This document shows, piece by piece, positions 2,749-43,689 of a stretch of DNA of 64,000 nucleotides. The translations under genes and the position numbers were made by a program. The notes beneath the pieces were generated by a model. It made no database searches, was not told where the DNA came from, and worked only from the letters and a program-made list of their open reading frames with translations. How positions within the stretch are numbered: the first letter of the stretch is position 1; each line of letters begins with the position of its first letter. Origin of the DNA: a virus; IMG/VR virus record IMGVR_UViG_3300031555_005249. One strand, given 5' to 3'.

Positions 2749-3254
2749 CACTCTAAAGCAGAGCTATAATCTTTTTCTTTTTTTGGATGTAAATAAGCAT
2801 GACCAATACAAATTGCGTCTGCAATGTCGTCATTGGTTAAAGATAATCCATAAGCACGGTTTGCAAAGTCTATATCTTTCTATTTTTTCTATTCGCGCTT
2901 AGATCCACGTCCATCTTCTATTCCACATACGGAGCGCCAAGAACTAGGATAAACTAATTCAATTTCTACATTAGGATATTTATCATGAAGCTCGATATGG
3001 ATTAACGCTTGTAAATACATTAATGCTTTAAATGTATTAGTGTTTTTAGTATGATCTGGAATAACTTCTTCCATTACAATTTTTTCAATCTTTAACTATT
3101 CTACTAATGCTAGTATATTATCAACCATTTTATGGATTCGTTTATATAAATCATTTGAAGAAGCTGTAATACAAGTCTATCCAATCAACTCTTTGTCTTT
3201 AAAAATTGCCACACCTGTTGCTTTAGTTGAGGCATCTAATGCAAGTAAGTACAT
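2745..3254 (-). CDS. RuvC-like Holliday-junction resolvase, with 4 in-frame TAG codons
   Basis: Rejoined translation MYLLALDASTKATGVAIF...DDIADAICIGHAYLH carries the RuvC catalytic motifs. The listed ORF 2889-3074 is only the middle fragment. GGAGGTG RBS upstream. Confidence 0.65.
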
Positions 3255-3277
3255 ATATGCACCTCCATTCTGGTTTT

Positions 3278-3306
3278 ATTATACTATAAAATTTTATAAA
3301 AGTCAA
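3278..3306 (-). promoter_or_regulatory. Consensus sigma-70-type promoter (TTGACT-17-TATAAT) for the RuvC unit
   Basis: Minus-strand reading TTGACTtttataaaattttatagTATAAT. Confidence 0.55.
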
Positions 3307-3318
3307 AAGGAGCAGAAT

Positions 3319-4588: not shown

Positions 4589-5003
4589 TTACTGCTTCTC
4601 CATATGGGAAAAGATAATAAGCAAAACAACCCTCAGGGTTTCTAATCCAAAGTTCCCAACTACCATCTGTTTGATCTTCTATTGCTAAAATTTCTCCTCT
4701 ATTAATCATACACTCAATAACGTCATTAGCTGCATTGTAAACTGTGAGAGGAGGAGTCATATCGCTATTTGTTTTATTTAAGTTAAATAAAGTAAAGTCG
4801 CGCTGTTCATGACATAAAAGCATAAAATACTTTTGTTCAAAATGGTTTAGAAACCAAGTTCTTAAATGTTCACGCGAAAGTTCAAGTTGAGCATCGCTAA
4901 TCTTAGGCTCTTTTTCCATCAACTGCTTATTTATATCATATAGATTTCCAAGAGAGACTTCTGACGTTTGCTTTGGAATTTTATCTTCATAGTTGGCTTT
5001 CAT
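4578..5003 (-). CDS. Hypothetical protein
   Basis: ORF track. Confidence 0.4.
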   Translation of the reverse strand: MKANYEDKIPKQTSEVSLGNLYDINKQLMEKEPKISDAQLELSREHLRTWFLNHFEQKYFMLLCHEQRDFTLFNLNKTNSDMTPPLTVYNAANDVIECMINRGEILAIEDQTDGSWELWIRNPEGCFAYYLFPYGEAVIEY

Positions 5004-5062
5004 TTTTCTTTCTCCTTAAATTGTTCTATATATAATAATTATAATTTAATTTTTTATTTTTG

Positions 5063-5257
5063 TCAAGCTTCTGTTTTTATATATAAACCGCAATTGCAAA
5101 TAGTCCCCTAAGGTGATTCACGAAAATCTTTACACATACATTTAGTATCTTCATTTCGAAATTCTTTTAGCACACAAGGACAATGTCCTTCAGCAGCATT
5201 AATAGCTGTGCGGATCTCAGCGGCAAGTTCATCACTAGCATATCTTTTAATGATCAT
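5063..5257 (-). CDS. Small CPC/CxC-motif redox protein resembling the ferredoxin-thioredoxin-reductase catalytic motif (CPC-x10-CMC-x11-CNC), with one in-frame TAG
   Basis: Hand translation MIIKRYASDELAAEIRTAINAAEGHCPCVLKEFRNEDTKCMCKDFRESP-Q-GTICNCGLYIKTEA; translationally coupled to nrdG (TAATG). Confidence 0.35.
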
Positions 5258-5739: not shown

Positions 5740-8700
5740 TTATTAATAGGCTCCCATTTTCTCATTTTATATTCATTAGTTCTTTCTTTTGACCACGTCT
5801 TTATAGGGGTGTAAAAGCCAACGATACGAGTATATTCTGTTTCAACTGGTCGACCACATACTGGACAAGTGCGTCCATAGAAGGCATGGTTATTATCACA
5901 AGCTTGAATCTTGGTATTAAAAGCAAAATATGTTACTCCTGCATCAGAGATATAATTAACCATATCCCAAGCCTTATCAAAACTATCAAATGGGGCATCG
6001 ATATTGGCGTGTAGGATCGAACCTCCATTGCAATATCCATCAAACTCTGCGGCGATACGTACGCGCTCGGCAAGGGTTGTTTGTATACCAAGCGGAATAA
6101 ATTGATTACCATAAAGCGGTAAGTCAAAGATGCTCGCTTCCGGATAAAAGAATTTGTCTTTTTTCATTAGCTTTGCGGCAGCCGACTCTCCGGGGATCTA
6201 TTCAGTATTAACGTGATAATCGGCGCCTACCTCTGCAATAAATTCATCTGCCGTTTGACGTATAGTCTCAAAGATTCTTTTACCAAGCGACGAAGCATTT
6301 TCTGTATAGTAAACATTGCCAAATTCATCTGTACGAGTATAGCCAAAACGCTTCATTGTTTCATATACTCCGATAAAACCAATAGTATTATAAAGATGTT
6401 CAAAGTCGACTAACCCATTAGAAAAATTAGGTAATAGTCCTTTTTCAACATTACGACGAATAATATTACGTACACAATGTAGTGCTTGAAGATTCAAAAG
6501 TGTCAACTTCTTCAATCCACATAGATATTCAAATTCATTAGCACTATCAAGAGCGAGGCGCGCGAGGTTGATTGTAGAGACTTTAACTGAACCGACTTTT
6601 AGTGCGGTACCTCCGATACTATTAAAATAACCTAGGTCTTTAATATCACTCTTCAAACGACAACAGTTAGAAAGTGAAGTTACTGAATCATCAATAAATA
6701 GGTTACTGTCAGACCAGCGCATATTGTGTTTAACTGCCCAGCGCGCAAAATCTTCATCTTGGAATTTACCTTCTTGTTTTAGTAGAGAGATTGAAAGTAC
6801 TGGAAAAGTAAACATATTCTTGTCCCTGATATCAGCAACGGTTTCCATATACCATTTTTGGAATTCAATAATTTCTTCTTCATAGTCAATCATAAATTCT
6901 CCATTAGGGAACTCACTGCCGCCAAATAAAGCTTCGTAGTAAGGACGATCAAATACACTGGTATTAGTAAATGCAGATTGCGACCCATCGCGGACATAAG
7001 GTTGATTCACTGCGTATACAAAACGCTGGAAGTTTTGACGTGCATATTTCTCTCCATTTCCGCTACTCTTGATACCGAGATAGTCTTCTTCCATATCCTT
7101 ATGCCAAAAGTAATACATATAAGGGATGAGATTAGGAAGTCCTACGGCGCCGGAGGAACGATTAGAAGCATAGCTAATAAACTCTTTAACAAAATCAACA
7201 AAAGTAGTTAAATGCTAAGCAGGCTCAGGATTAAAAGGTGCGCCAATAAAATATAGTCCTTTTTCAGCCAGGTCTTTCAGGTCATAAGCAAAACAATTAT
7301 GAGATAGAATGTTGTTGCAAATAAAATGACCTGTTTTTGTTGTTAAGTCATATACCTCAGGGCATTCATCAATATACTCTGAGTTATCAATAACTGAGAC
7401 CCATCCATAGTTATATTCATATTGCTTGTTTTTAAAATTACCTTTACGAGTTAAAGGAATATATTTTTCAGCAATTTTAATACTTCCAATACGAGAAAAA
7501 TATTCTTCGTTCGTTAAAGTGAAGCCAATCCCAAACATTGGTAACTTTTGTTCGAAGCTTCCAGCTCGATTATATCTAAATGGAGTGCGATCTCCTGCAA
7601 AAACCCCTTTGGAATGTAAATACATACTCAATTGATGGCATAGCGTTTCTGAGGCAATACGGATATGACAATGTCTATTTTTATATCCATCAATAGTACC
7701 ATCGCCATCGATCATTCCCGCAATAATTCCATCCATAAATTCAGAAGGATAAGTCATGAAATATGATGGTAACTGCTTAGTTGCAGAAGTCTGACCTTTT
7801 AATAGTGAATTTAACCATTCTTCAAAAGGACTAACCTTTAAATAAATTTTTCTATCTCCACTTTCTGAATATGGAATATCATATTGGTCACAGATATATT
7901 TTAATTTTTCAGCTTGAGGAGAATCTAGTTTTTGAGCAATTACAAATTGACTATTCAGACTATTTCCTTCGGAAAGAGCCATACCTAATATCCATCCTGT
8001 CTCTCTATTATAAGGAATTTGATATACAATTTCTTGATGACTTTCAGAATATTTATTAGGCTGTATTGTAAAGACTCGATACTCACTAGTTACATCCTTT
8101 GCAGGAATATCTCCACAATCGGTAATAATAGGGTGATCTTCTGTTACAATTTGTGATAAACCATTTGCTAACTTGATAAAACGCATAGGTTTATTATTTG
8201 TGTGTTTAACTGCGCGAGTAATCTTAGTCCAACATTTTTCTCCAGTTTCTTCATTAATATCAAGTATCTCGATATTTTTCGGGAAAAGTGCATTTTGTTC
8301 AATAGATACATCATATTTTTCTTCTGCTTCTGTATCCATATACAAAATATTTTCATACAAATTCTTAAGTGCAAAAGTGTATTCACGATGCACCTTGTCT
8401 CTTACTGTTACAAGTTCTTCACCCTTATAGCAGTAATGTTTAAAGGTCGAGGTATCAGCATCATGCATGTAGAGCTGACCAATCCATTCGGCGCGCAACC
8501 ACTCATTTGCACGTTTAAAACCAAAATGTTTTTGCATCTCATAATGAATTTTATTATAAGCTAATAATTTTCTATGAGGTTTTGGCATTTCGTTTAAGAG
8601 AGTTACAATATCTTTTTTACTAACATTACTATTGCCATCAATACTCGCGTCAGCTACGACTTTGGTATCGATAAATGAACTAATAAAATCTGTGTAACTT

Positions 8701-8885
8701 AATTGTTCATCAGCAAATCCATTAAGCTTTGCCATTTCAGTTCCAAATTCATCTTGCATTTTGTTATAAGCAGTAACAAAATTTTTCTTTAATTTAACAT
8801 TAACTTCCATATCTCCAATGATATCCTCCTGTTGTTTGTAAAAATCCTTGACAGCATCGAGATATGTTTTCATGATGTATGCCAA
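5736..8885 (-). CDS. nrdD: Anaerobic ribonucleoside-triphosphate reductase NrdD, one continuous frame with 2 in-frame TAG (6198-6200, 7215-7217) and a LAGLIDADG intein
   Basis: Three listed ORFs (7215-8885, 6198-7118, 5736-6167) are in frame and separated only by TAG. C-terminus has the CPVCG Zn ribbon and the glycyl-radical region TRIVGFYTP. Confidence 0.8.
7296..8432 (-). mobile_element. Intein (379 aa) with LAGLIDADG homing-endonuclease domain inside NrdD
   Basis: Starts with Cys after ...TSTFKHY, ends ...ILSHN followed by Cys+1. Internal motifs LGMALSEGN and IAGMIDGDG. Confidence 0.75.
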
Positions 8886-9480
8886 GCTCTTTCTCTGCTT
8901 CTGCTAGAGATTTAAAGTTTTGATTTAGCTCCACACAATAAACTGGAGTAACTCTTTTATCTTCAGATAGAGGAAGATTATTTGATAAATAATCTTCATA
9001 GTATGTCCAATGAAATTTATATGCAGTGTGTAATTTTCCACGACAACACGCAATAATATTTGCATTAGCAAAACCCTTTAATCGTTCAATTTCTTTTGCG
9101 CTATCAAAAACCTTTTGTGTTTCTAAACATATAATTTTTCTTTTTGTTTTACAACTATTACTCATTTTTTGACGAGATTCTCTTGAATATTCATTATTCA
9201 ATCCGCCACTTTTTATATTATAGCCACTATTCACAGTATCATATTTTGTGATAAGTTCTTCTTCTTTTTGATTAGCTTCCTGTAATGTTAAGTTCTCATA
9301 TAAAATAGTCTATTCAAAATTATCCCATCCATATTTTTCAATAGCATGATAAAATTTAACACAGCCAGTATAGTTAGAGGGGTGACAGCGACGCGTGATA
9401 TCTTTAGACTAACCAATATATTTTTTGCCATTTATTTTATTGGTATAACAATAAATGCAATATTGATTATCCATTAGCAT
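8800..9480 (-). CDS. GIY-YIG homing endonuclease (I-TevI-like, NUMOD C-terminus), 2 in-frame TAG
   Basis: N-terminus MLMDNQYCIYCYTNKINGKKYIG-TAG-SKDI...R..H...AIEKYGWDNFE; a TAG sits at the conserved Gln of the YIGQ motif. Free-standing between nrdD and nrdH, as seen with T4 mob/seg genes. Confidence 0.75.
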
Positions 9481-9691
9481 GCTCCTTTGCCCAATTAGTA
9501 AACCACTTAATAGCTTCTGGGCCTGTATAGATAGTACCATCCATACGAAGCGCGGGAGCAGCTTTTACTCCAAGAGCAATAATTGCATCTTCATCTTCAA
9601 TATGCTTATAGCTGATACCAGCTTTATCCATTTTCATTTTTAACACTTTGCACTGGGGGCATCCAGGCTTTGAATATAAAGTTATATCCAT
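9467..9691 (-). CDS. nrdH: Glutaredoxin-like protein (NrdH-like, CPQC active site)
   Basis: KPGCPQCK motif, 74 aa thioredoxin fold. Confidence 0.6.
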   Translation of the reverse strand: MDITLYSKPGCPQCKVLKMKMDKAGISYKHIEDEDAIIALGVKAAPALRMDGTIYTGPEAIKWFTNWAKEHANG

Positions 9692-9766
9692 GTCATTTTC
9701 TCCTTTTCATTTAATTTTGACATTATAATATAATTTTTATTATAATTAGTTAAATTATTTTTGACC

Positions 9767-10396
9767 TCATTTTGCTTTTATCAACTTTAAATGTTCACTA
9801 AAAACAGCCGGATCTTTACCAAGAGATAACCACATTCTACTAATAGGCAAAGTAATACCATAGTTCATAAGTAGGTCTGGATTGGTATTATTATCCATAT
9901 TTGCAAACCTGTAATATTCAAATTCAAGGTCGCTAAAATCTGTTTCATCTGTAAAATAACGACGACACATTTCTGCACAATTAGGATTATCAGAGCGTTG
10001 TAAATAACGCATTAAGCGCATTTTATCAGGTGCGTCCACATAAATTACTATGGTTTGAATATTAGGCGCCTCAAGAAGAGCAATTACACCTGCAGGGTTA
10101 AATACACCTATATTAATTTTATCGGTTACTAATGAGTCATAACCAGTGCCGTAAAACCAACCATTAAATTCTGTTGCTTCAAAGAGATTCCCATTTAAAA
10201 CTCTACGAGTAAAATCTTCAATAGAAAGGTAATGGTAATCTATACCATCTTGTTCATTATCTCGCGGCGGGCGCGTAGTACAGCTAACTATTGAATGAAA
10301 AATATCTGGATGTAATTCATAAGTAACTCGCTGAATTAAATCTTTACCTGCGCCCGCCTTGCCTATAAGCGCCACTACTTGATATTGTTTATCCAT
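9767..10396 (-). CDS. gmk: Guanylate kinase
   Basis: P-loop GKAGAGKD and the signature CTTRPPRDNEQDGIDYHY. True start is MDKQYQ; the listed ORF starts at a spurious upstream codon. Confidence 0.8.
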   Translation of the reverse strand: MDKQYQVVALIGKAGAGKDLIQRVTYELHPDIFHSIVSCTTRPPRDNEQDGIDYHYLSIEDFTRRVLNGNLFEATEFNGWFYGTGYDSLVTDKINIGVFNPAGVIALLEAPNIQTIVIYVDAPDKMRLMRYLQRSDNPNCAEMCRRYFTDETDFSDLEFEYYRFANMDNNTNPDLLMNYGITLPISRMWLSLGKDPAVFSEHLKLIKAK

Positions 10397-10556
10397 AAAT
10401 TCTTGTTTGACCTCTTTCTTTTTGTATTTCTTGTAAAGATAATAGTAGTTGATAAGCTTCACTATAATCTTCAAATGATTCTGTGGTAATCTCTATTTTA
10501 TAGAGATTACCAGCATTTTCATAATCGGGGGTAATTACCCGTTTTATATCAATCAT
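10389..10556 (-). CDS. Small hypothetical protein (55 aa)
   Basis: ATG overlaps the dnaE stop (ATGA); stop overlaps the gmk start. Confidence 0.3.
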   Translation of the reverse strand: MIDIKRVITPDYENAGNLYKIEITTESFEDYSEAYQLLLSLQEIQKERGQTRIYG

Positions 10557-14530: not shown

Positions 14531-15418
14531 TTATTCTATATACCTCCAATAATATCCATATGCTTTTCTTTGCTTTCTGGCAGCTGCGCAAATATTACTT
14601 TTATCTTGTAATCCTAGAGCTCTAGCTGCATCTGCTCCAGAGTCATATTCAGCAATTATGCTATTATCTAACGTGAGTTGTTGAATTCTTTTCTTAGGGC
14701 GTCCACTAGATAACTTATTCTAATAAATTTGTACCCACTCTTGGATATCTCTTTCATCTGCTTTGTATTTCCAAAGAAAGCCGTAAGCACTTTTCTATTT
14801 CTAAGCACATACCTAACTAATTGCTGTTTGTTGAAAACCATTAGCCCTGCCGCACTCTGAGGCTGATTCCCATTCTTGGATAAAATATCCATTTAAATCA
14901 TACTGTAGTACAGGATAAGCACATCGTTTTGCTACTGCGCAACCAAATCTTGCGGCTATCTCTTCTCGTGAAATTCCTGCTCCTCTTAATCGAAGTCGGG
15001 CAGTTTTTTTTGAACAGCCTATTTTTTCAGCAATTTCTTTAATTAAAAGACCTTGATTCCAGCCATCAAGAAAAAGCTGAGTGGGATATAGAATCGCCCC
15101 TTGTCCTCCAAGAACTGCATTGTATCCATTATTAGGGTCGGTGCTGTCAAAATATTCTATATAATACATTTCTCGCTCAAATCTAATTTCATCAGGGCAT
15201 TTCTCTAGCGTTTCAATAATAAAATTTTGTTCTCCGTATTTTCGTATAGCACAAGAAATATGATAATAATATCCATGATCACCTTCTTTAGAATGAGCCC
15301 TTCTTATATGTTCCCTCCACCTTGTCTCAACCCCTCGAATAGTTTCTCCTATATAAACTTTATTGTTTATTTGGTTGGTAATTTTATAAATATAAGCCAT
15401 AAAATGCTCTCCTTTCAC
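14531..15418 (-). CDS. GIY-YIG homing endonuclease with NUMOD1/NUMOD3 C-terminal modules, 6 in-frame TAG
   Basis: N-terminus YIYKITNQINNKVYIGETIRGVETRWREH...E...N. The frame continues through the TAG at 14813 for about 95 more aa and ends in the NUMOD1 signature ...AARALG...GYYWRY. Confidence 0.8.
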
Positions 15419-22353: not shown

Positions 22354-23106
22354 TCATCCTTTCTTTAAATAATTTTCTACATCTTCAATAAACAACCAAT
22401 GATAACCATAGCCTTTAGTTTCACCTTTATTACGACAACTTCTACGAATGTGAGAACCATCTGTTTTTCCTAGTGCTCGAGCAGCGGTTTGACTTGATGA
22501 ATACTCTTGTTTGGTTTCTATGCAATATACTGGTTTACTATTGGTTTTAACTGAATTTATTCGCATTTTATCTAATTTAATTTTTTCTTCTTCTTTATGA
22601 CTATCCCAGTATACACGAGATGCCATTCTTCCTTTTAAGGTATTATTTTTTCGTTCTTCAAAAGAAGAATTTTCTATATATTTTACATTAATTTCCTTTA
22701 AAAATACTTTCTTTTCTTCTTTTTTATCTTCTGGTAAATTTTGCCAAGTATTTTTAGAAGCAATACCAATTTTCTTTTTAGTTTCTTCTGTGTGCAAATG
22801 TCCAAGCTGACCTCCTTTTGTTAAATTATATCCAAAATCAGGATTGTCACTTTTATAAAATTGGATATAAAATTTTTCCCAATAATCAGCTTCATTTTGA
22901 CTTAGCAAGTTTTGTTTTAAAATTATATGCTCAAAATTATCCCATCCATATTTTTCAATGGCAGAATAAAAAAGAGGGCTTTTAATATATTGCTTTCCAT
23001 TAGCTCTCCATCTCTACTTTATATTACAGCTTTGTCCTATATATCTTTTCTAATTTTGCTTATTAACATGAGCATAGATACACCATTTTTTAATATTTTC
23101 ATTCAT
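22354..23106 (-). CDS. GIY-YIG homing endonuclease with NUMOD3/NUMOD1, 2 in-frame TAG
   Basis: Rejoined N-terminus MNENIKKWCIYAHVNKQN-Q-KRYIGQSCNIK-Q-RWRANG...SAIEKYGWDNFE. C-terminus has HTEETKKKI and AARALG...GYHW. Confidence 0.75.
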
Positions 23107-27775: not shown

Positions 27776-28264
27776 TTATTGAGCTGTATTTATCAAATCT
27801 TTAAGTTCCGTCACAATAAGGTCAAGCGCTTCTGTCTGTTCGCGAGAGCACTGAGAAACTTTTTGTCCTTTACCAAGATATTTCTCTATGCATTGACTAA
27901 TACGAGGTTGCCAATAAGTTTTGAATGTTTCTTCGTCGCTTTGAACCGAGAGGTCTTGAATCATTGAGTTAAACTGCATCATAAGTTCATCGAAATCAAG
28001 TTCTTTTGAAACGAATGTATGCAAGTTGGCGCCAGTATCTGTGAAGTATTGAGTTCCATCCTCAGCCGCCTGTCTATCAATAGCATCTCCTATTGCATTA
28101 ACAAGAGCATTATAGTTGAAGTCAATATAATCAGGCGTATACTTAAATCTACTTCCAGCTACGAAACGAGGAGTTCCGCGCATAAAGAGTTTTGTAGATT
28201 TCTCACCAGACTCAGACTCAACAGTTCTCGCATATCCTATTATGTCCTTTAATACCCTCTTTTT
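27776..28264 (-). CDS. Sak4-like (AAA_24) recombination ATPase, exon 2
   Basis: Begins exactly after the group I intron terminal G. Sequence KKRVLKDIIGYARTVESESGEKSTKLFMRGTPRFVAGSR is remembered to resemble the AAA_24 C-terminal region. The listed ORF start is a TTG artefact. Confidence 0.5.
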   Translation of the reverse strand, partial: KKRVLKDIIGYARTVESESGEKSTKLFMRGTPRFVAGSRFKYTPDYIDFNYNALVNAIGDAIDRQAAEDGTQYFTDTGANLHTFVSKELDFDELMMQFNSMIQDLSVQSDEETFKTYWQPRISQCIEKYLGKGQKVSQCSREQTEALDLIVTELKDLINTAQ

Positions 28265-29250
28265 CAAGATATTTTAATGGGAATAGACTATATCTTCATC
28301 CATTTTAAACGGTGGATGTCATGCACTTCGATTTAAAGGATTTTCACCTACTTTTATATTATTATAAAAGCCCTACTCCTGTTGAGGAAATTTCATCCTC
28401 CAGTGGGATAGTCGTTGAACCTTCTCCTATTCGGAGCTTGGCTGCTGATTGCCCAATTTAATCAATTTTTAACATTCGCACTTAGATTTCTTTCATTCTT
28501 ATGCTGTAGTTTGATTAACTCTAAGGGGTTTCCAGCAATTCACATGATTTGCTTAATGGATTGCTCCATTAAGGGCCTTATATATTTCATATTTTCGTCT
28601 CAACCGAGAGGCCTCGGTTGAATGTTCATAAATTTTATTTAAAATTTGTACAACTGCAGCGCCTTCTTTATGAATTTGATAAGCAGAGGTTCCACAAGGA
28701 CTTACTTTATTATCAAACTCTAAAATTTCTAGCATTTGTTTTGTGCAGATCTCAGTTTGACTGACAAAACTTAAACTAGGAATATTGTTTCTATCTTCTC
28801 TAATGTGAATACTACCATCTGCATCTAGCAATCCTCTTGCAAAATCATAAATATATTCATTAGGAATGTTTTCAAGGGGAATACTAAAAATAGAGGTTTT
28901 TGCAGGTACTATATTATATTGTGCTAAATAACGTTTTAACTCTGCCGAGTTTATAGATACAGTTAAAGCATGACATCCAGTGTTATTAGTACGCTCTGTA
29001 ATGGGCGCATTAGATTCAAAGAATGCTTGTAAATTTTCAAGCTGCTCTCTATCTATATCTTTTAACTCAACTCTTACTCTGGCTTCATTTTTAGCTACAT
29101 TTCCATCTCCAGCTAAAAATCCAAGCCAATAATATTTTTCATGAGGGTCTATTTTAATGTTTGTTAAATTTAAAGGATATTTTCTCAAAAAACTTTCAAC
29201 TCCTTCTTTAAGAGAGCGAAAATATGAAATAAAAATGTTAAGCCATACGG
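28265..29250 (-). mobile_element. Group I intron (minus strand) splitting the Sak4-like gene and carrying a LAGLIDADG homing endonuclease ORF; exact 5' splice site not resolved (about 29241-29335)
   Basis: Canonical core elements in order: P AAATTGGGCAA (28449-28459), Q AATCAGCAGC (28441-28450), R GTTCAACGACTATCC (28406-28420), S AAGATATAGTC (28287-28297). Intron ends with G at 28265. A possible P10 (CTCTT with exon-2 AAGAG) is present. Confidence 0.6.
28553..29188 (-). CDS. LAGLIDADG homing endonuclease (double-motif), encoded within the group I intron
   Basis: Motifs LGFLAGDGNV and LLDADGSI; TTG start preceded by AAGGAG. Confidence 0.8.
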   Translation of the reverse strand: MRKYPLNLTNIKIDPHEKYYWLGFLAGDGNVAKNEARVRVELKDIDREQLENLQAFFESNAPITERTNNTGCHALTVSINSAELKRYLAQYNIVPAKTSIFSIPLENIPNEYIYDFARGLLDADGSIHIREDRNNIPSLSFVSQTEICTKQMLEILEFDNKVSPCGTSAYQIHKEGAAVVQILNKIYEHSTEASRLRRKYEIYKALNGAIH

Positions 29251-29807
29251 TTTACAATATTACGAGGTTTATTATCAAGAGTAGGAACAATCTGATTATA
29301 CTCATTGCCATTTTGATCCTTAAAGGTTTTGTCTTGCGCGTGAGAAATAATTACTAAGCCGTATCCTAATTGAAGGATTGAACGAAGCGCGCTATCAAAC
29401 TCTTGCGCTGCCATTTTGAAGCCCTTTCCGTAACCAATGTCACCGATGCTATCGACGCCTATAGAGCCATCTGGACGAACTGCATTGGCGCAAATATATT
29501 TCTCACAATAGTCATAGGCTATATCAGCTGTATCAAGGATAATAGTTTCGAATCTAGCTTTAACCTGTTCATTCTTTAACTGGCGCAAGAATTTTTTAAA
29601 CTCAGACCAACTATTAATAGGTTGTGCCATGGCGCCGGGAATTGCATTATATCCTTTTTCAAAAGCCGCCAAAAGATGATTAGGGAATTTAGTCGCGGTA
29701 GTAGTTTTACCGGTCTTTGCGTCTCCATAGAAGAAGACGCAATAACCGCGCATATCTCTTGAAACCTAATGAGGCTAAATATCAAGTAAATTAAAATCTG
29801 CCATTTT
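29238..29807 (-). CDS. Sak4-like (AAA_24) recombination ATPase, exon 1 (the 3' part of this ORF probably continues into the intron); 2 in-frame TAG near the N-terminus
   Basis: MADFNLLDI-Q-PH-Q-VSRDMRGYCVFFYGDAKTGKTT... has the Walker A and ILDTAD motifs. ATG at 29807 is in frame with the listed ORF. Confidence 0.6.
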
Positions 29808-31489: not shown

Positions 31490-32185
31490 TTAATCAAAGA
31501 TTAGCTCTTTTGCATAGGGAAGAGTATTCGCCCACTCAAGGAAAGTATGCCACTCAGAGAGCTTGTGTCCGGCGCGCTGATGAGCCATACTACGAAGATT
31601 CTCATAATTCATAGTTACTGTACGCGTTTGAAGCCAACCATTGGGCAGCCAACGGATAAGCTCTTTCCAATATCGCTTATCTTTTGTTTCAAGATATTTT
31701 TGACGCAAGGTTTCACAATAAGCAATAATAGTATCTGGATTTAATGTTTCATCAATATCCGCGAAGTTAGTAAAATCATCAGTCTCAAAACATTCAAGCG
31801 TAATTGGAGTGCTTGCCAGTTTATGCATGGTGCTAGTTGAATTCTCGGTTACTCCAATACGGTAGGTATCAAACTCCTTGAGCCAGTAGAGAGGAGCAGT
31901 AATATCTACACTCACGAAGATTTGTCTAAGAAATTTACGATGTTCTGGACCTCCATTGATTAGTCTACGACAAAGATCCATATCATTAGGTCCGATTACA
32001 AAAGCCCCTTTAAGCATATTGCCTGGACACACTGACCAATCAAGACGCCATTTATCACAATTATCACAACTACCTGGACACAAAATAGAATCGCTTTTAG
32101 CCCAGCTATTAAGCGGATTTCTCATACCACGTAAAGCACCTTCAAAGTTAAAAACCTCAGTATTCTTAAACTTCATTAATCCCAT
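31490..32185 (-). CDS. ThyX-like (flavin-dependent thymidylate synthase fold) protein, divergent: RHR motif replaced by TYR
   Basis: EHRKFLRQIFVSVDITAPLYWLKEFDTYRIGVTENSTS aligns with the ThyX pattern HRxFxFxI...P.FV.RE..RHR..S.NE.S.RY. Confidence 0.4.
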   Translation of the reverse strand: MGLMKFKNTEVFNFEGALRGMRNPLNSWAKSDSILCPGSCDNCDKWRLDWSVCPGNMLKGAFVIGPNDMDLCRRLINGGPEHRKFLRQIFVSVDITAPLYWLKEFDTYRIGVTENSTSTMHKLASTPITLECFETDDFTNFADIDETLNPDTIIAYCETLRQKYLETKDKRYWKELIRWLPNGWLQTRTVTMNYENLRSMAHQRAGHKLSEWHTFLEWANTLPYAKELIFD

Positions 32186-32340: not shown

Positions 32341-32527
32341 TTATATAATCTTTAATAACTTCATTATTAAGTAGATTAAACAGTTCTTCTTGGTTATGCT
32401 TATCTACTATTATGGCGCAAGCTTCGTTCCAGCTTAGGTTTTCAGCATGATACTCTGCGCCTTCGTCTGTTGTTATCCAAATATCTACTTTCATTTCAAT
32501 TTTAACTCCTTGCGTATTTTCTTCCAT
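32309..32527 (-). CDS. Hypothetical protein
   Basis: ORF track. Confidence 0.35.
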   Translation of the reverse strand: MEENTQGVKIEMKVDIWITTDEGAEYHAENLSWNEACAIIVDKHNQEELFNLLNNEVIKDYIKDVANESNKN

Positions 32528-32539
32528 TTTTGGTCGTAC

Positions 32540-32632
32540 ATTTTAAAAACAAAGCTAAAACAGTCTCCCCAAGACCAAAACTCTTTTTCTTCAATATCAC
32601 CAATTTCATCTGTCCATTCTAGTTTAATATAC
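32540..32632 (-). CDS. Very small hypothetical protein (about 30 aa)
   Basis: ATG immediately after the exon-2 stop (TAAATG). Confidence 0.2.
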
Positions 32633-32634
32633 AT

Positions 32635-32860
32635 TTAACTATTTCCGCGAGTTTTATTCAGTCCAAAATCATATGTCTGATAGAGGTCAATATAAAACTT
32701 CTCCTTTTCATTTAATTCATTGATATTACATTTTTCAAGTATTTCAAAAGTAAAGTTATCAATACCCTTTTCTTTTGTAAATGCATAAAGTTGACTTGTT
32801 ACAGGGGTATCGATACCTAAGCTGCATTTGACATGCGTTACCCAGCGCTCTTTAATGTTG
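32635..32860 (-). CDS. Exon 2 of the membrane-anchored coiled-coil GIY-YIG-domain protein (C-terminal half of the GIY-YIG domain)
   Basis: Sequence (V)NIKERWVTHVK...FTKEKGIDNFTFEILEK...GLNKTRGNS; joins exon 1 to give ...YIGQAV|NIKERW. Confidence 0.6.
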
Positions 32861-34150
32861 CATTAATTTTGACTATTTTTTACTGTAATTTTTATTACAG
32901 GAAACCATTTCGGCATTTAAAGTACTTCGTTTCCTAAAATACTACTATGTGCTAATAATAGCCCTACTTCCCCGCCCATAAGGCCTAGGGAATAGTCGAT
33001 ACAGGTTTTTCAATTAATCCATTATTTTCTAGCAGGATAATCATAATCTTTAAGAATATAAGTTTTTCCTAAATTAATATTACTTATAGTTGAACGCCCT
33101 ATGTTATATTGTGCACCAATATTATCCATAGAAGTATTAGTATTACGTAACAGATCTAAAATATTCTAAACATCCTCTAAAGTTAAATTATGATTATTGC
33201 GAATGTTTTTTGCTCTAATAGGATAACTATATTTCCCTATTTCTGCAAATTTTCTTCCATTATTAATGTCTCTTAATACCCTGATTGGAATATTATATTT
33301 AATATCTATACCACCTTGAATTGGTAAATCCCAACGATACAATAAATCTTCTTTTAAATTAACTAGCTCTTCTTCGGAGGAAAAATAATCTAAAACTTCT
33401 GTCTTACACGCTGAGTCATGATTATTTTTTCTTAATGGGTAAACTAAGTTTGGATTAACATAGGTTCTACCTGTTGAAATATTTAATATAGTACCTTGTC
33501 CTACTCCATATTTATTACCTATCTCTGTTAAAGAAAACTCTGTATGATTAATTAACAAATCAATTATTTCTTTAAGTTGATTTTCATTTAAAGCTGCATT
33601 AGGATTTTCAGTCCCTCGTTTCCCCGAAGCGTCTCCTCCTCGGGTTTTATTGTATCCGTGTCCATCTTTAATATAGGTTTTATAAAAGGAAATCCAATAT
33701 CTTTCTTTATCATCTAATAACGATAAGTCAGAAACTGTTTCAAGTAATTCAAACTCATCAATAATAATATTGTATTCTTTCATTTTTTGCTCACACAATA
33801 GAAGTTCTCTTGAACCATGTCCAGCTTGACTATAAGAATTATGCTCCATAAGTCTAGCTCGAATATTTTGAGCCTATCCAATGTAAGCTTTTCCGTTTGG
33901 GTAATTAATTTTATAAATTCCGCTAATAATGTCATTTGGTGTCATCTTAGATAAAAATAATTTTTGCATTTTATGCCTCCTATAATGTTATATTCATCAG
34001 TTGTTCATATATATATTATTTTTATGGAAGATGGATTAATCAAAATTTCCCACGAGATTGTATTTTATTAAAAAATATTTTCCTCGTTAGCCACTATAAG
34101 TTAGCGACCCCTAGCAGCTACTAGGTAAAGTTTTTCATCGGCCAACATTG
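32861..34150 (-). mobile_element. Group I intron carrying a GIY-YIG homing endonuclease ORF, inserted in a gene that itself encodes a GIY-YIG domain
   Basis: 5' splice site after U at 34151, closing a P1 with a U-G pair (exon CGGU with intron GCCG). A 7-bp P10 pairs intron AATGTTG with exon-2 CAACATT. Core R-like ATCGACTATTCC and S-like ATAGTC elements are present. Intron ends with G at 32861. Confidence 0.65.
33022..33970 (-). CDS. GIY-YIG homing endonuclease (intron-encoded) with HTH C-terminal modules, 2 in-frame TAG
   Basis: MQKLFLSKMTPNDIISGIYKINYPNGKAYIG-TAG-AQNIRARLMEH...GYNKTRGG; a TAG sits at the conserved Gln of YIGQ. The frame reads through the TAG at 33166 to a TAA at 33022. Confidence 0.75.
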
Positions 34151-35118
34151 ACCGCTTGTCCGATATAAGATATACCAGAGTCAATGTGTGTTATCTTATA
34201 TATTCCACTGGCGCCCAACGCACCTACGCGCGCCGCAAGGTCATTGACTTTATCTCTATAGAAAGTAGTCCATATAAGCATACGCAAAGGTCTTGCTTCG
34301 CGTAGATTATATTCAATACTTTGAAGATATGCCACGTCTCGCTTATCTGCCTCATTAAGTTGAAGAGTATAAAATGTTGCTTGATTTTTAATTTCTTCTT
34401 CACGAAGTTGTGCTTCCATTGTGGCGGCCTTGGTTGCACGAATTTTTTCTAGCTCTTTGCGGATTGAGTCTAGGTCGGCGCGCATTGCCGCCTCTTCTTC
34501 TTGTAATTCTTTAGACATTGACTATTGCTTATCATAAAATAATTGCACAAGAGTGTCAATATCTTGACGTCGCTCTTCAATTAATCCTTTTTCTCTTGCA
34601 TCAAGTTCTTGAAGTCTGTCAAAATATAATTGATCAAGAGTGTCCACTTCAATATCGAACTCTTGTTCGCGTTTTTGATATTCATAATCAAGAGTCTCAC
34701 AATATTGTTCAAAGGAGGCGAGCGCAGCTGCCTTTAAGTCACCTGACATTGTCTCTACAGAGCTGCTGAAAGCAGCAATTTGCGCCTCAATTCCTGCTTT
34801 TTCAATTTGCTTATTTTGAATTTCATTTATTAACAACAATTTCTATTGAGTTAATTGATTTAATTCGTCGTAAGAATTTTTTGTTTTTTTACAGTTCTCT
34901 TCATATTTTTGAGAAATTTCATTGTTAGATTTTATCAATAAGTTATTTTGTGCTTCTAAGCTTTTGCGAGTTGCTTGTAATGACTAATTGAGTTCTTCTA
35001 GTTTCTAATTTTCTTCTGCTGTATAGCGATTAGCTTTTACAGATGTGGCTTTAACCCATACTCCATAAGCAAGACCGCTCACACCAAGAAGAATTGATAT
35101 TACGCATAATACTATCAT
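34151..35118 (-). CDS. Exon 1 of the membrane-anchored coiled-coil protein with a C-terminal GIY-YIG domain (N-terminal TM helix, long coiled coil, GIYKITHIDSGISYIGQAV), 4 in-frame TAG
   Basis: ATG at 35118 (MIVLCVISILLGVSGLAYGVWV...) is in frame through TAGs at 35005, 34984, 34843, 34522 into the listed ORFs 34522-34839 and 34135-34518. Confidence 0.55.
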
Positions 35119-43614: not shown

Positions 43615-43689
43615 TGGCAGGGGAGGTAGGAATCGAACCTACGTCTGTGGTTTTAGAGACCACGGTCTTGACCTTTCGACGACTCCCCA
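43615..43689 (-). tRNA. Amber suppressor tRNA (anticodon CUA, reads UAG), class I, with U1-U72 mismatch and G73 (Gln-like identity)
   Basis: Hand-folded cloverleaf: acceptor 6 bp, D-arm, anticodon stem GTGGT/ACCAC with loop CT-CTA-AA, T-arm GTAGG-TTCGATT-CCTAC, CCA encoded. Confidence 0.8.

Follow-up and report, generated by a model that had tools for sequence, protein, structure and literature searches.

Mobile group I introns that carry a GIY-YIG endonuclease and interrupt phage genes have been textbook knowledge since the td intron of T4 and its endonuclease I-TevI. High densities of group I introns and homing endonucleases are described for the genomes of the Agate (10.1101/2021.08.26.457843) and Jug (PMC12880540) gut phages, and in the Jug phages splicing of the introns was confirmed by metatranscriptomes (PMC12880540). 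Both reports appear to concern other host genes and other phage clades than the locus described here, which lies in IMG/VR virus record IMGVR_UViG_3300031555_005249, a phage genome fragment of 64,000 nucleotides (nt) with 36% G+C, the whole of which we call the window. Positions 34150-32861 of its minus strand very probably constitute a mobile group I intron with an IA2-like core, placed within a conserved phage gene for a transmembrane and coiled-coil GIY-YIG protein. The gene is interrupted in frame, intron-less alleles of it exist, the architecture of the inserted RNA covaries, and its core resembles those of proven group I introns. All parts of this locus are on the minus strand, and their coordinates are given as positions of the window.

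Exon 1 (35118-34151) starts with ATG at 35118-35116 and ends with GT at 34152-34151. It encodes a transmembrane helix, a long coiled coil, a two-helix linker and the first half of a GIY-YIG domain, so far as the protein end ...GIYKITHIDSGISYIGQAV. Four in-frame TAG codons inside exon 1 are read as sense, as Gln in our translation, and unspliced read-through of exon 1 terminates after VNVGR. Exon 2 (32860-32635) encodes the second half of the domain (NIKERWVTH...GLNKTRGNS) and closes with a TAA stop. An in-frame TAA stands immediately 5' of exon 2, and a search for ATG, GTG and TTG starts in frame near its 5' end found none that was usable. The insert between the exons is 1,290 nt long, and its exact excision restores an open reading frame (ORF) of 1,194 nt. 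Joining 34151 to 32860 gives a protein of 397 amino acids (aa), ...YIGQAV↓NIKERW..., where the arrow marks the junction. The spliced product has a single unbroken Pfam GIY-YIG match over the junction (E 1.9e-7), from aa 304 to 385, which covers profile positions 2-74 of 78, and PF01541 scores 31.7 bits across the junction (cutoff 22.6).

Among 5.8 billion proteins searched, the host protein has more than 100 full-length homologs, 361-406 aa in length, the best of which has 397 aa and is 92% identical. The gene of this best homolog, on contig L012, is an intron-less allele. It is uninterrupted over 1,194 nt, compared with 1,194 nt for exons 1 and 2 of the window, and the two align ungapped with 91% DNA identity. 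Relative to L012, the window exons have no frameshifts or stops, and catalytic residues are conserved in both exons. The neighbourhood is also the same: upstream, beyond a few small ORFs, lies a gene for an NAD-dependent DNA ligase. Divergence is highest in the flanks of about 12 nt at the junction, GCGGT↓CAACATT in the intron-containing allele versus GCCAA↓AGATATC in the intron-less one. Because the spliced gene matches intron-less homologs in length and gives a continuous GIY-YIG domain, the in-frame interruption is real. Three database 'proteins' of 321-327 aa (P0020, P0047, P0085) end in ...YIGQAVNVGR; they are products of other phages in which exon 1 is read through into this intron. Among database entries, the host gene is closest to Phass-1, filed as 'Caudoviricetes code 15 clade'.

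The pairings at the splice sites follow the pattern of a group I intron. P1 with the internal guide sequence (34139-34154) joins exon CGGU (34154-34151) and C 34150 to GGCCG (34143-34139), and the U·G pair at the 5' splice site is formed by U 34151 with G 34142. P10 pairs intron AAUGUUG (34149-34143, in the P1 loop) with exon 2 CAACAUU (32860-32854) in seven of seven positions. The last intron base is the omega-G at 32861 (...AAUUAAUG↓C), a junction fixed by the intron-less allele, and the 3' end ...AAUG↓ is common to the window intron, its relative L030 and td. In the wider family of related introns, the 5' exon ends in U wherever the reading frame fixes the junction, and the last 4-6 exon bases pair with the guide sequence. 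Exon and guide change together: CGGU/GCCG occurs in the window, L006 and L086, UGGU/GCCA in the introns of thyX-like genes, and AGGU/GCCU, GGGU/GCCC, ACGU/GCGU and GGAU/GUCC elsewhere, with the splice-site U·G unchanged in all these versions. P10 is longer in L030 (10 bp) and shorter in L006 (4 bp, AUCG with CGAU). An automated P1 finder was noisy and often chose longer spurious helices; the P1 calls rest on cases anchored by the reading frame. In addition, exon 1 ACAUUGACU (34177-34185) is fully complementary over 9 bp to GGUCAAUGU, that is GGU↓CAAUGU (34145-34153), across the 5' splice site, and the equivalent in L006 is AAUUGAU/GUCAAUU with one compensating change. This helix could compete with P1 and P10, or it could simply follow from the Ile-Asp and Val-Asn codons.

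An earlier note on this DNA had proposed a group I intron with a GIY-YIG homing endonuclease gene (HEG) inside a transmembrane and coiled-coil GIY-YIG gene, and P1, P10, covariation and the link of the core to known introns now bear this out. Its positions and residues for both exons hold, as does its gap of about 1.29 kb with a complete GIY-YIG HEG, which we find to be 1,290 nt with an ORF of 315 aa. The U-ending exon, the P1 of CGGU with GCCG closed by U·G, the 7-bp P10 and the terminal G were all recovered on the minus strand. The predicted restoration of ...YIGQAV↓NIKERW agrees with the continuous Pfam domain and with the length of the intron-less homologs. The note had also considered that the two GIY-YIG halves might belong to unrelated pseudogenes; the uninterrupted 397-aa homologs and the intact exons speak against this.

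The core of the insert can be written as a set of group I helices. The 5' strand of P3, AAACU (34129-34133), pairs with GGUUU (P3', 32902-32906), and two hairpins lie between P3 and P4 (34091-34125), one P3.1-like (34110-34125) and one P3.2-like (34091-34107); P3.1 is a named optional pairing of group I introns (PMC3873408). P4-P5-P4' occupies 34052-34087 (ACGAGG ... UCUCGU), and the P6 5' strand GGG (34049-34051) pairs with CCU (33003-33005). P6a is a 13-bp helix of UUGAUUAAUCCAU (34031-34043) with AUGGAUUAAUUGA (33010-33022), whose loop holds the HEG ORF and whose 3' strand overlaps the HEG stop codon. P7 joins GACUAU (32992-32997) to AUAGUC (32871-32876) and crosses P3, which makes the group I pseudoknot. 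Between P7 and P3' follow P7.1 (32969-32991), the AGUAGG joint, P7.2 (32944-32962) and an extra hairpin (32921-32943) with the loop UUUUAGGAAACGAAG, and P8 is at 32883-32900. P1 and P3 lie only 5 nt apart, and in the window copy 10 nt lead from P7' to the 3' splice site. All core helices of the window copy are fully paired.

Covariation was assessed in an alignment of 40 distinct family members, from which ORFs and poorly occupied loop columns were removed, with the structure written from the window copy. Over 12 helices in the 40 sequences, 86.6% of 2,416 cells were paired, compared with 39-47% when the 3' partners were slid by 1-3 columns, and the covariation score was 0.428 versus 0.09-0.14 in the slid controls. 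Both sides changed in 49 of the 64 pairs, and none of 500 shuffles reached the observed values. P4, P6 and P7.2 were paired throughout the alignment (100%) and P7.1 in 97%, with double changes in four of the five pairs of P7.1 and again of P7.2. G-C to A-U compensation occurred in the P4 helix of nine sequences, and the GGG/CCU of P6 becomes CCC/GGG in L034 and L052. P3 exists in at least 10 compensating versions, among them AAACU/GGUUU, AUACU/GGUAU, CAUAUCU/GGAUAUG, UAUACCU/AGGUAUA, AAUGGUU/AGCCAUU and AACUUCU/AGAAGUU. Copies from Lak megaphages have compensatory changes in P7 (GGUCAU/AUGACC) and P8. The stem of the extra hairpin is variable and covarying, and its loop has 15 nt, of which 11 (AGGAAACGAAG) belonged to our search pattern, so that their invariance proves nothing; the free UUUU was kept in 39 of the 40 sequences, L052 having UUAU. 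Two other pairings were considered and rejected: P3 as GGC (before 'UAAC') with GCC (in AAAUGCCGAAAU) was without covariation, and UAUAGG of the region of the ribosome-binding site (RBS) with CCUGUA was incompatible with the covarying P6a and P6. A mixed MAFFT alignment of 5' and 3' halves together was uninformative outside the CGACUAUUCC block.

The same RNA is found in other phages. In blastn comparisons, about 100 nt 3' of the HEG ORF are 84-89% identical to sequences of Enterococcus phages EF1 and EF5 and of Lak megaphages, and the EF1 copy has an endonuclease-like ORF on one side and, on the other, the second piece of a DNA polymerase III alpha gene that has been split. IMG/VR was scanned twice by pattern, which returned 8 and then more than 120 viral loci or contigs. 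Family members interrupt thyX-like, Toprim, DNA polymerase III alpha and GIY-YIG genes in frame, the Toprim site being ...DADV↓. Four ORF-less members (L030, L118, L122, L125) split a thyX-like gene at ...APLYW↓WKEFDTY. The thyX-like gene of the window itself (31490-32185, minus strand) is intron-less, and a regular-expression search found a single family copy in the window. The intron also sits at the codon of the window insertion, Y(I/V)GQxV↓, in three distant homologs of the host gene, with the junctions YIGQTV↓DIATRW (L006), YVGQAV↓DIADRW (L086) and YIGQAV↓NIADRW (L041). The YIGQxV↓ codon is occupied by this intron in at least four divergent phage lineages. The homolog in L006 (about 8500-10403) is 34% identical at the protein level; the layout of transmembrane helix, coiled coil and GIY-YIG domain is shared by L006 and L086, and in L041 the GIY-YIG region at the splice site was read. 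TGA is aligned with a conserved Trp in L006, so this phage may read TGA as Trp, and TAG is a sense codon in L086 and L041.

The link to known group I introns was made with R1, a covariance model of the P7-P7' half of the family (137 positions, 26 pairs), from whose training set the Lak copies were left out. R1 scored 143.7 bits on the window copy (32870-33006, E 1.8e-35), and 117.1 bits (E 1.5e-28) and 106.7 bits (E 8.2e-26) on the Lak copies L009 and L003. It also matched a second intron of the window that is recognised by the Rfam group I model RF00028 (31 bits, E 5e-6), a T4-type td intron (L132 2162-2247; 22.7 bits, E 7.5e-4), and the Twort introns orf142-I2 (18.6 bits, E 8.8e-3) and orf142-I1 (16 bits, E 0.043). 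The matches are in register over P7, P7.1, the AGUAGGG joint, P7.2, CGAAAY, P8, J8/7 and P7', with the extra hairpin deleted in the classical introns. The td and Twort reference sequences were checked by BLAST (100% and 98.6% identity). Motifs common to the window intron, td and Twort are GACUAU/AUAGUC, UCC..GGA-AGUAGGG and CGAAAY. The insert thus has P1 with its U·G, the omega-G, P10, the P3-P8 and P4-P6 domains and the P3/P7 pseudoknot of group I introns, together with the P7.1 and P7.2 between P7 and P3' of subgroup IA2, which align with their td and Twort counterparts. The canonical IA2 periphery, P2 between P1 and P3 and a P9 region, is absent from the window copy. We use the term 'IA2-like' rather than IA2 because the periphery is atypical, with no P2, two P3-P4 hairpins, an extra hairpin and no P9. 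On sequence and alignment, then, the insert is best described as a group I intron whose core is IA2-like and whose periphery is atypical. A group II intron, an intein or an IStron was set aside, since the insert has neither a reverse transcriptase nor a domain V, is not in frame and lacks a transposase.

The loop of P6a holds a 315-aa HEG ORF (33969-33022) with an AGGAGG RBS at 33976-33981, 8 nt 5' of the ATG. The ORF is intact and contains two in-frame TAG codons. Its product has a Pfam GIY-YIG domain at the N-terminus (aa 17-98) and helix-turn-helix (HTH) matches towards the C-terminus (134-161 and 261-307), and matches PHROG 7168 over aa 17-307 (E 3.4e-22). From this domain layout and its location in the intron loop, we classify it as a putative homing endonuclease of the I-TevI type. 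It presumably cleaves the intron-less alleles of co-infecting relatives, after which the intron would be copied in by repair. Indirect signs of this are the patchy distribution of the intron, its much higher conservation than that of its exons, and the divergent flanks of the two kinds of allele. The host gene, whose products are 71-92% identical to each other, contains the intron in a minority of its alleles. In the relative L133, where the intron is at 3092-3316, its first 133 nt match those of the window with 97.7% identity, and the DNA of exon 1 does so with only 74%; about 770 nt have been deleted there, removing the HEG start and the GIY-YIG domain. This is the pattern expected of recent horizontal spread followed by endonuclease decay, and the intron as a whole is patchily distributed through horizontal spread. 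Two other free-standing GIY-YIG endonuclease-like ORFs occur on the minus strand of the window, at 22354-23106 and 14531-15400 (...RYIGQSCNIKQRW...; MAYIYKITNQINNKVYIGET...), and the window genome is rich in HEGs.

The host protein was modelled with AlphaFold2 using 67 homologs and P0001 as the target (mean pLDDT 83). The model has a helix at 2-122, beginning in a hydrophobic segment, and a second helix at 126-246, which likely form a coiled-coil hairpin. Next come two short helices at 256-298, which hardly vary within the family, and residues 305-383 form a beta-beta-alpha-alpha-beta-alpha domain. GIY, YIG, R328, E374/E376 and N391 are invariant in the 67 homologs, as are Y307 and Y318; we take these residues to be the counterparts of the catalytic residues of I-TevI. 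In Foldseek, the C-terminal domain fits best on the I-TevI catalytic domain (1LN0, 1MK0; TM score 0.76-0.82, probability 1.0), followed by the UvrC N-terminal domain. The domain is 39% identical to the catalytic domain of the intron HEG and passes the NCBIfam model TIGR01453 'group I intron endonuclease' (60.7 bits, cutoff 56). Searches of aa 240-300 and the coiled coil against Pfam (E ≤ 10), NCBIfam, PADLOC and PDB profiles returned coiled-coil noise only, and a search for a NUMOD or HTH DNA-binding module in the host protein found none. Two unnamed viral proteins have the same longer layout. An exhaustive search with the exon 1 product gave 928 representative clusters at 50% identity, 399 of them at E ≤ 1e-10, mostly over residues of about 200-326. 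The nuclease domain probably derives from a homing endonuclease domain, and our best guess is that the host protein acts as a membrane-tethered DNase without its own sequence-specific DNA-binding module. The earlier note had called a membrane-anchored coiled-coil GIY-YIG nuclease unusual; the architecture it described stands, and the rarity does not, given the 399 clusters. The protein is uncharacterised yet not rare.

A wider interpretation of these data is conceivable, and we hold it to be rather doubtful. It would combine an uncatalogued, IA2-derived group I subclass, a sub-lineage specialised on 'YIGQxV' codons, and splicing as a nuclease switch. The subclass may be marked by the absence of P2, the two P3-P4 hairpins, the extra hairpin with its UUUUAGGAAACGAAG loop and invisibility to RF00028, and may be common in gut phages, that is in Lak megaphages, Enterococcus EF1 and EF5, and phages with recoded codes. 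The sub-lineage may have followed the YIGQxV site of a membrane-tethered, HEG-derived nuclease across phages in which TAG or TGA is a sense codon. If this were true, splicing would decide whether an active nuclease or a truncated, nuclease-less protein is made, because the break falls in the catalytic motif.

Splicing of the intron would be expected to proceed as follows. In the pre-mRNA, the guide sequence would pair with the last exon bases (CGGU with GCCG), placing the U·G at the cleavage site, and the core would fold into the P3/P7 pseudoknot, P4-P6, P7.1, P7.2 and P8. An external guanosine would attack after U 34151, exon 2 would be aligned by the 7-bp P10, and the freed exon 1 would attack after G 32861 to give ...YIGQAV↓NIKERW.... 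Without splicing, only the 327-aa nuclease-less product ending in VNVGR would be possible.

Several points weigh against a group I intron that splices in this way. Rfam cmscan with RF00028 gave no match in 32500-34400 even at E ≤ 10 and none for this intron at the gathering threshold over the whole window; the model was also empty on 12 loci including ORF-less relatives and on a 521-nt slice of L030, and gave no family match at the EF1 and Lak loci. Comparison of the family hidden Markov models with Twort, T4 nrdB and RB3 by nhmmer gave marginal matches only, the best being E 8e-4 on the P4 region. The R1 E-values are rough, from a shortened calibration, and the td and Twort values are modest. 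The structure was derived from the same sequences on which it was tested, in an alignment trimmed of ORFs and variable loops. P1 is short (4-5 bp), P2 and the P9 hairpin are absent from the window copy and P5 is almost wholly A/U. Self-splicing itself is predicted from sequence.

With regard to RF00028, the earlier note had named the absence of a match as a result that would tell against the intron, and this result occurred. However, RF00028 also misses the T4 nrdB intron and gives RB3 nrdB only 31 bits, although it detects three Twort orf142 introns with 64-101 bits, and its incomplete coverage of phage introns is acknowledged (PMC11878797). Because both the ORF-less relatives and T4 nrdB are missed, the silence of RF00028 is a false negative; the model is uninformative for this intron family, and the intron reading stands through R1. 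An artefact of pairing is disfavoured because the slid controls fail and because Lak sequences outside the R1 training set show compensatory P7 and P8.

The failure of Rfam to recognise the ORF flanks, together with the listing of exon 1 by gene callers as a stand-alone 321-327-aa protein in other phages (P0020, P0047, P0085), would also fit a free-standing HEG cassette that split the gene at the DNA level, with no splicing and with the gene dead or in two separate pieces. We regard this as very unlikely. Exon 2 lacks a start codon and an RBS and has the in-frame TAA just 5' of it, both exons are intact with catalytic residues kept, and the ORF flanks of about 180 and 160 nt are non-coding yet conserved, with covarying helices. 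Moreover, other genes are broken exactly in frame by copies of this RNA that have no ORF, and the complementarity of P1 and P10 follows each host exon.

Another reading is a group I relic, a decaying or protein-cofactor-dependent ribozyme in an allele that is a pseudogene or poorly expressed: the P1 of 4-5 bp, the missing P2 and P9 and the A/U-only P5 all fit, HEG decay has already happened in the relative L133, and the 9-bp helix of ACAUUGACU with GGUCAAUGU could compete with P1 and P10. Such a relic is very unlikely here, since all core helices of the window copy are paired and it scores 143.7 bits with the family model, the exons have no frameshift or stop, and the HEG ORF is intact with its RBS. 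Other P9-less members, of the L030 type, sit in an essential thyX-like gene.

The nested homing suggested in the earlier note, in which the host gene would itself be a mobile HEG invaded by another homing element, has in its favour the TIGR01453 match (60.7 bits), the 39% identity to the HEG domain and the I-TevI fold, and is hardly credible, as the host gene is full-length in more than 100 clusters at the same position near the DNA ligase (399 clusters at E ≤ 1e-10), and its product has no NUMOD or HTH module and bears a transmembrane helix and a coiled coil, a combination that to our knowledge is unlike all known HEG architectures. Because it lacks a DNA-binding module and is conserved in place, we regard the host gene as a resident phage gene and not as a mobile endonuclease gene.

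The sense TAG codons in the host gene and in the HEG belong to a wider recoding. In-frame TAG is present in most long ORFs of the window, and a tRNA with the anticodon CUA was found by ARAGORN at 43615-43689 (minus strand), with an Rfam tRNA match. TAG is a sense codon in the window phage, which is code-15-like, and the tRNA(CUA) is needed to read the in-frame TAGs of the host gene and the intron HEG. Because the HEG contains two of them, it would be translated only with an active phage tRNA(CUA). In Agate gut phages, recoded stops inside an intron endonuclease have been proposed to delay its production to late infection (10.1101/2021.08.26.457843).

The second group I intron in the window is recognised by RF00028 with 78 bits at 28265-28620 on the minus strand, within a locus at 27776-29804. 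It splits a P-loop ATPase gene into 29238-29804 ('FFYGDAKTGKTT') and 27776-28267 (minus strand), and its 5' part holds a LAGLIDADG-type ORF at 28553-29188 (...LGFLAGDGNV..., ...LLDADGSI...). Contig L018 has two RF00028-positive introns (2225-2460 and 4864-5085) and an RF00028-invisible member of the present family near 10261; both types of intron co-exist in this one phage.

These findings bear on the annotation of phage genomes. In the window genome, this gene would be called as two or three unrelated ORFs, and the read-through fragment has already entered databases as a 'protein'. Counts of introns in gut phages that are based on RF00028 are underestimates because a widespread family is missed, even in its ORF-less copies, and the alignment and the model from this analysis could seed a better detection model. 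The analysis also draws attention to a large conserved family in which an I-TevI-like nuclease domain sits on a membrane anchor and a coiled coil. It is plausible that this family represents a homing endonuclease domain recruited to a phage function.

The closest described system is T4 td with I-TevI, an IA2 intron. In both, a phage protein gene is broken in the codons of a conserved catalytic motif, and a GIY-YIG and HTH endonuclease ORF lies in the P6a loop. The introns share the P7 strands GACUAU/AUAGUC, P7.1, the AGUAGGG joint, P7.2 and the 3' end ...AAUG↓, and their P4 strands are alike (AACGGGGAACC...AAUCCCGUG in td and AACGAGG...AAUCUCGUG in the window intron). Unlike td, the window intron has two P3-P4 hairpins instead of P2, carries between P7.2 and P3' an extra hairpin with a 15-nt loop that is present in neither td nor Twort, lacks P9, P9.1 and P9.2, and is passed over by RF00028. 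The Twort orf142 introns (AF132670, annotated 'contains group 1 introns') have the same order of CGACUAUUCC..GGAAGUAGGG..CGAAAU followed by P3'-P8-J8/7-AUAGUC. They differ in being ORF-less and compact, with P2 and P9, and in reaching 64-101 bits with RF00028, where the window family scores nothing. With respect to the host protein, residues of about 300-397 superpose on the I-TevI catalytic domain (1LN0/1MK0) with a TM score of 0.76-0.82 and 22-26% identity. Unlike in I-TevI, the domain is C-terminal and fused to a transmembrane helix, a coiled-coil hairpin of about 240 residues and a two-helix linker that is highly conserved; I-TevI's own linker, its zinc finger and its HTH DNA-binding region are absent. 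We do not claim a new subclass, and class the intron as IA2-like. What is new here is the host gene, the recurrent insertion site in distant lineages and a family of introns that escapes RF00028.

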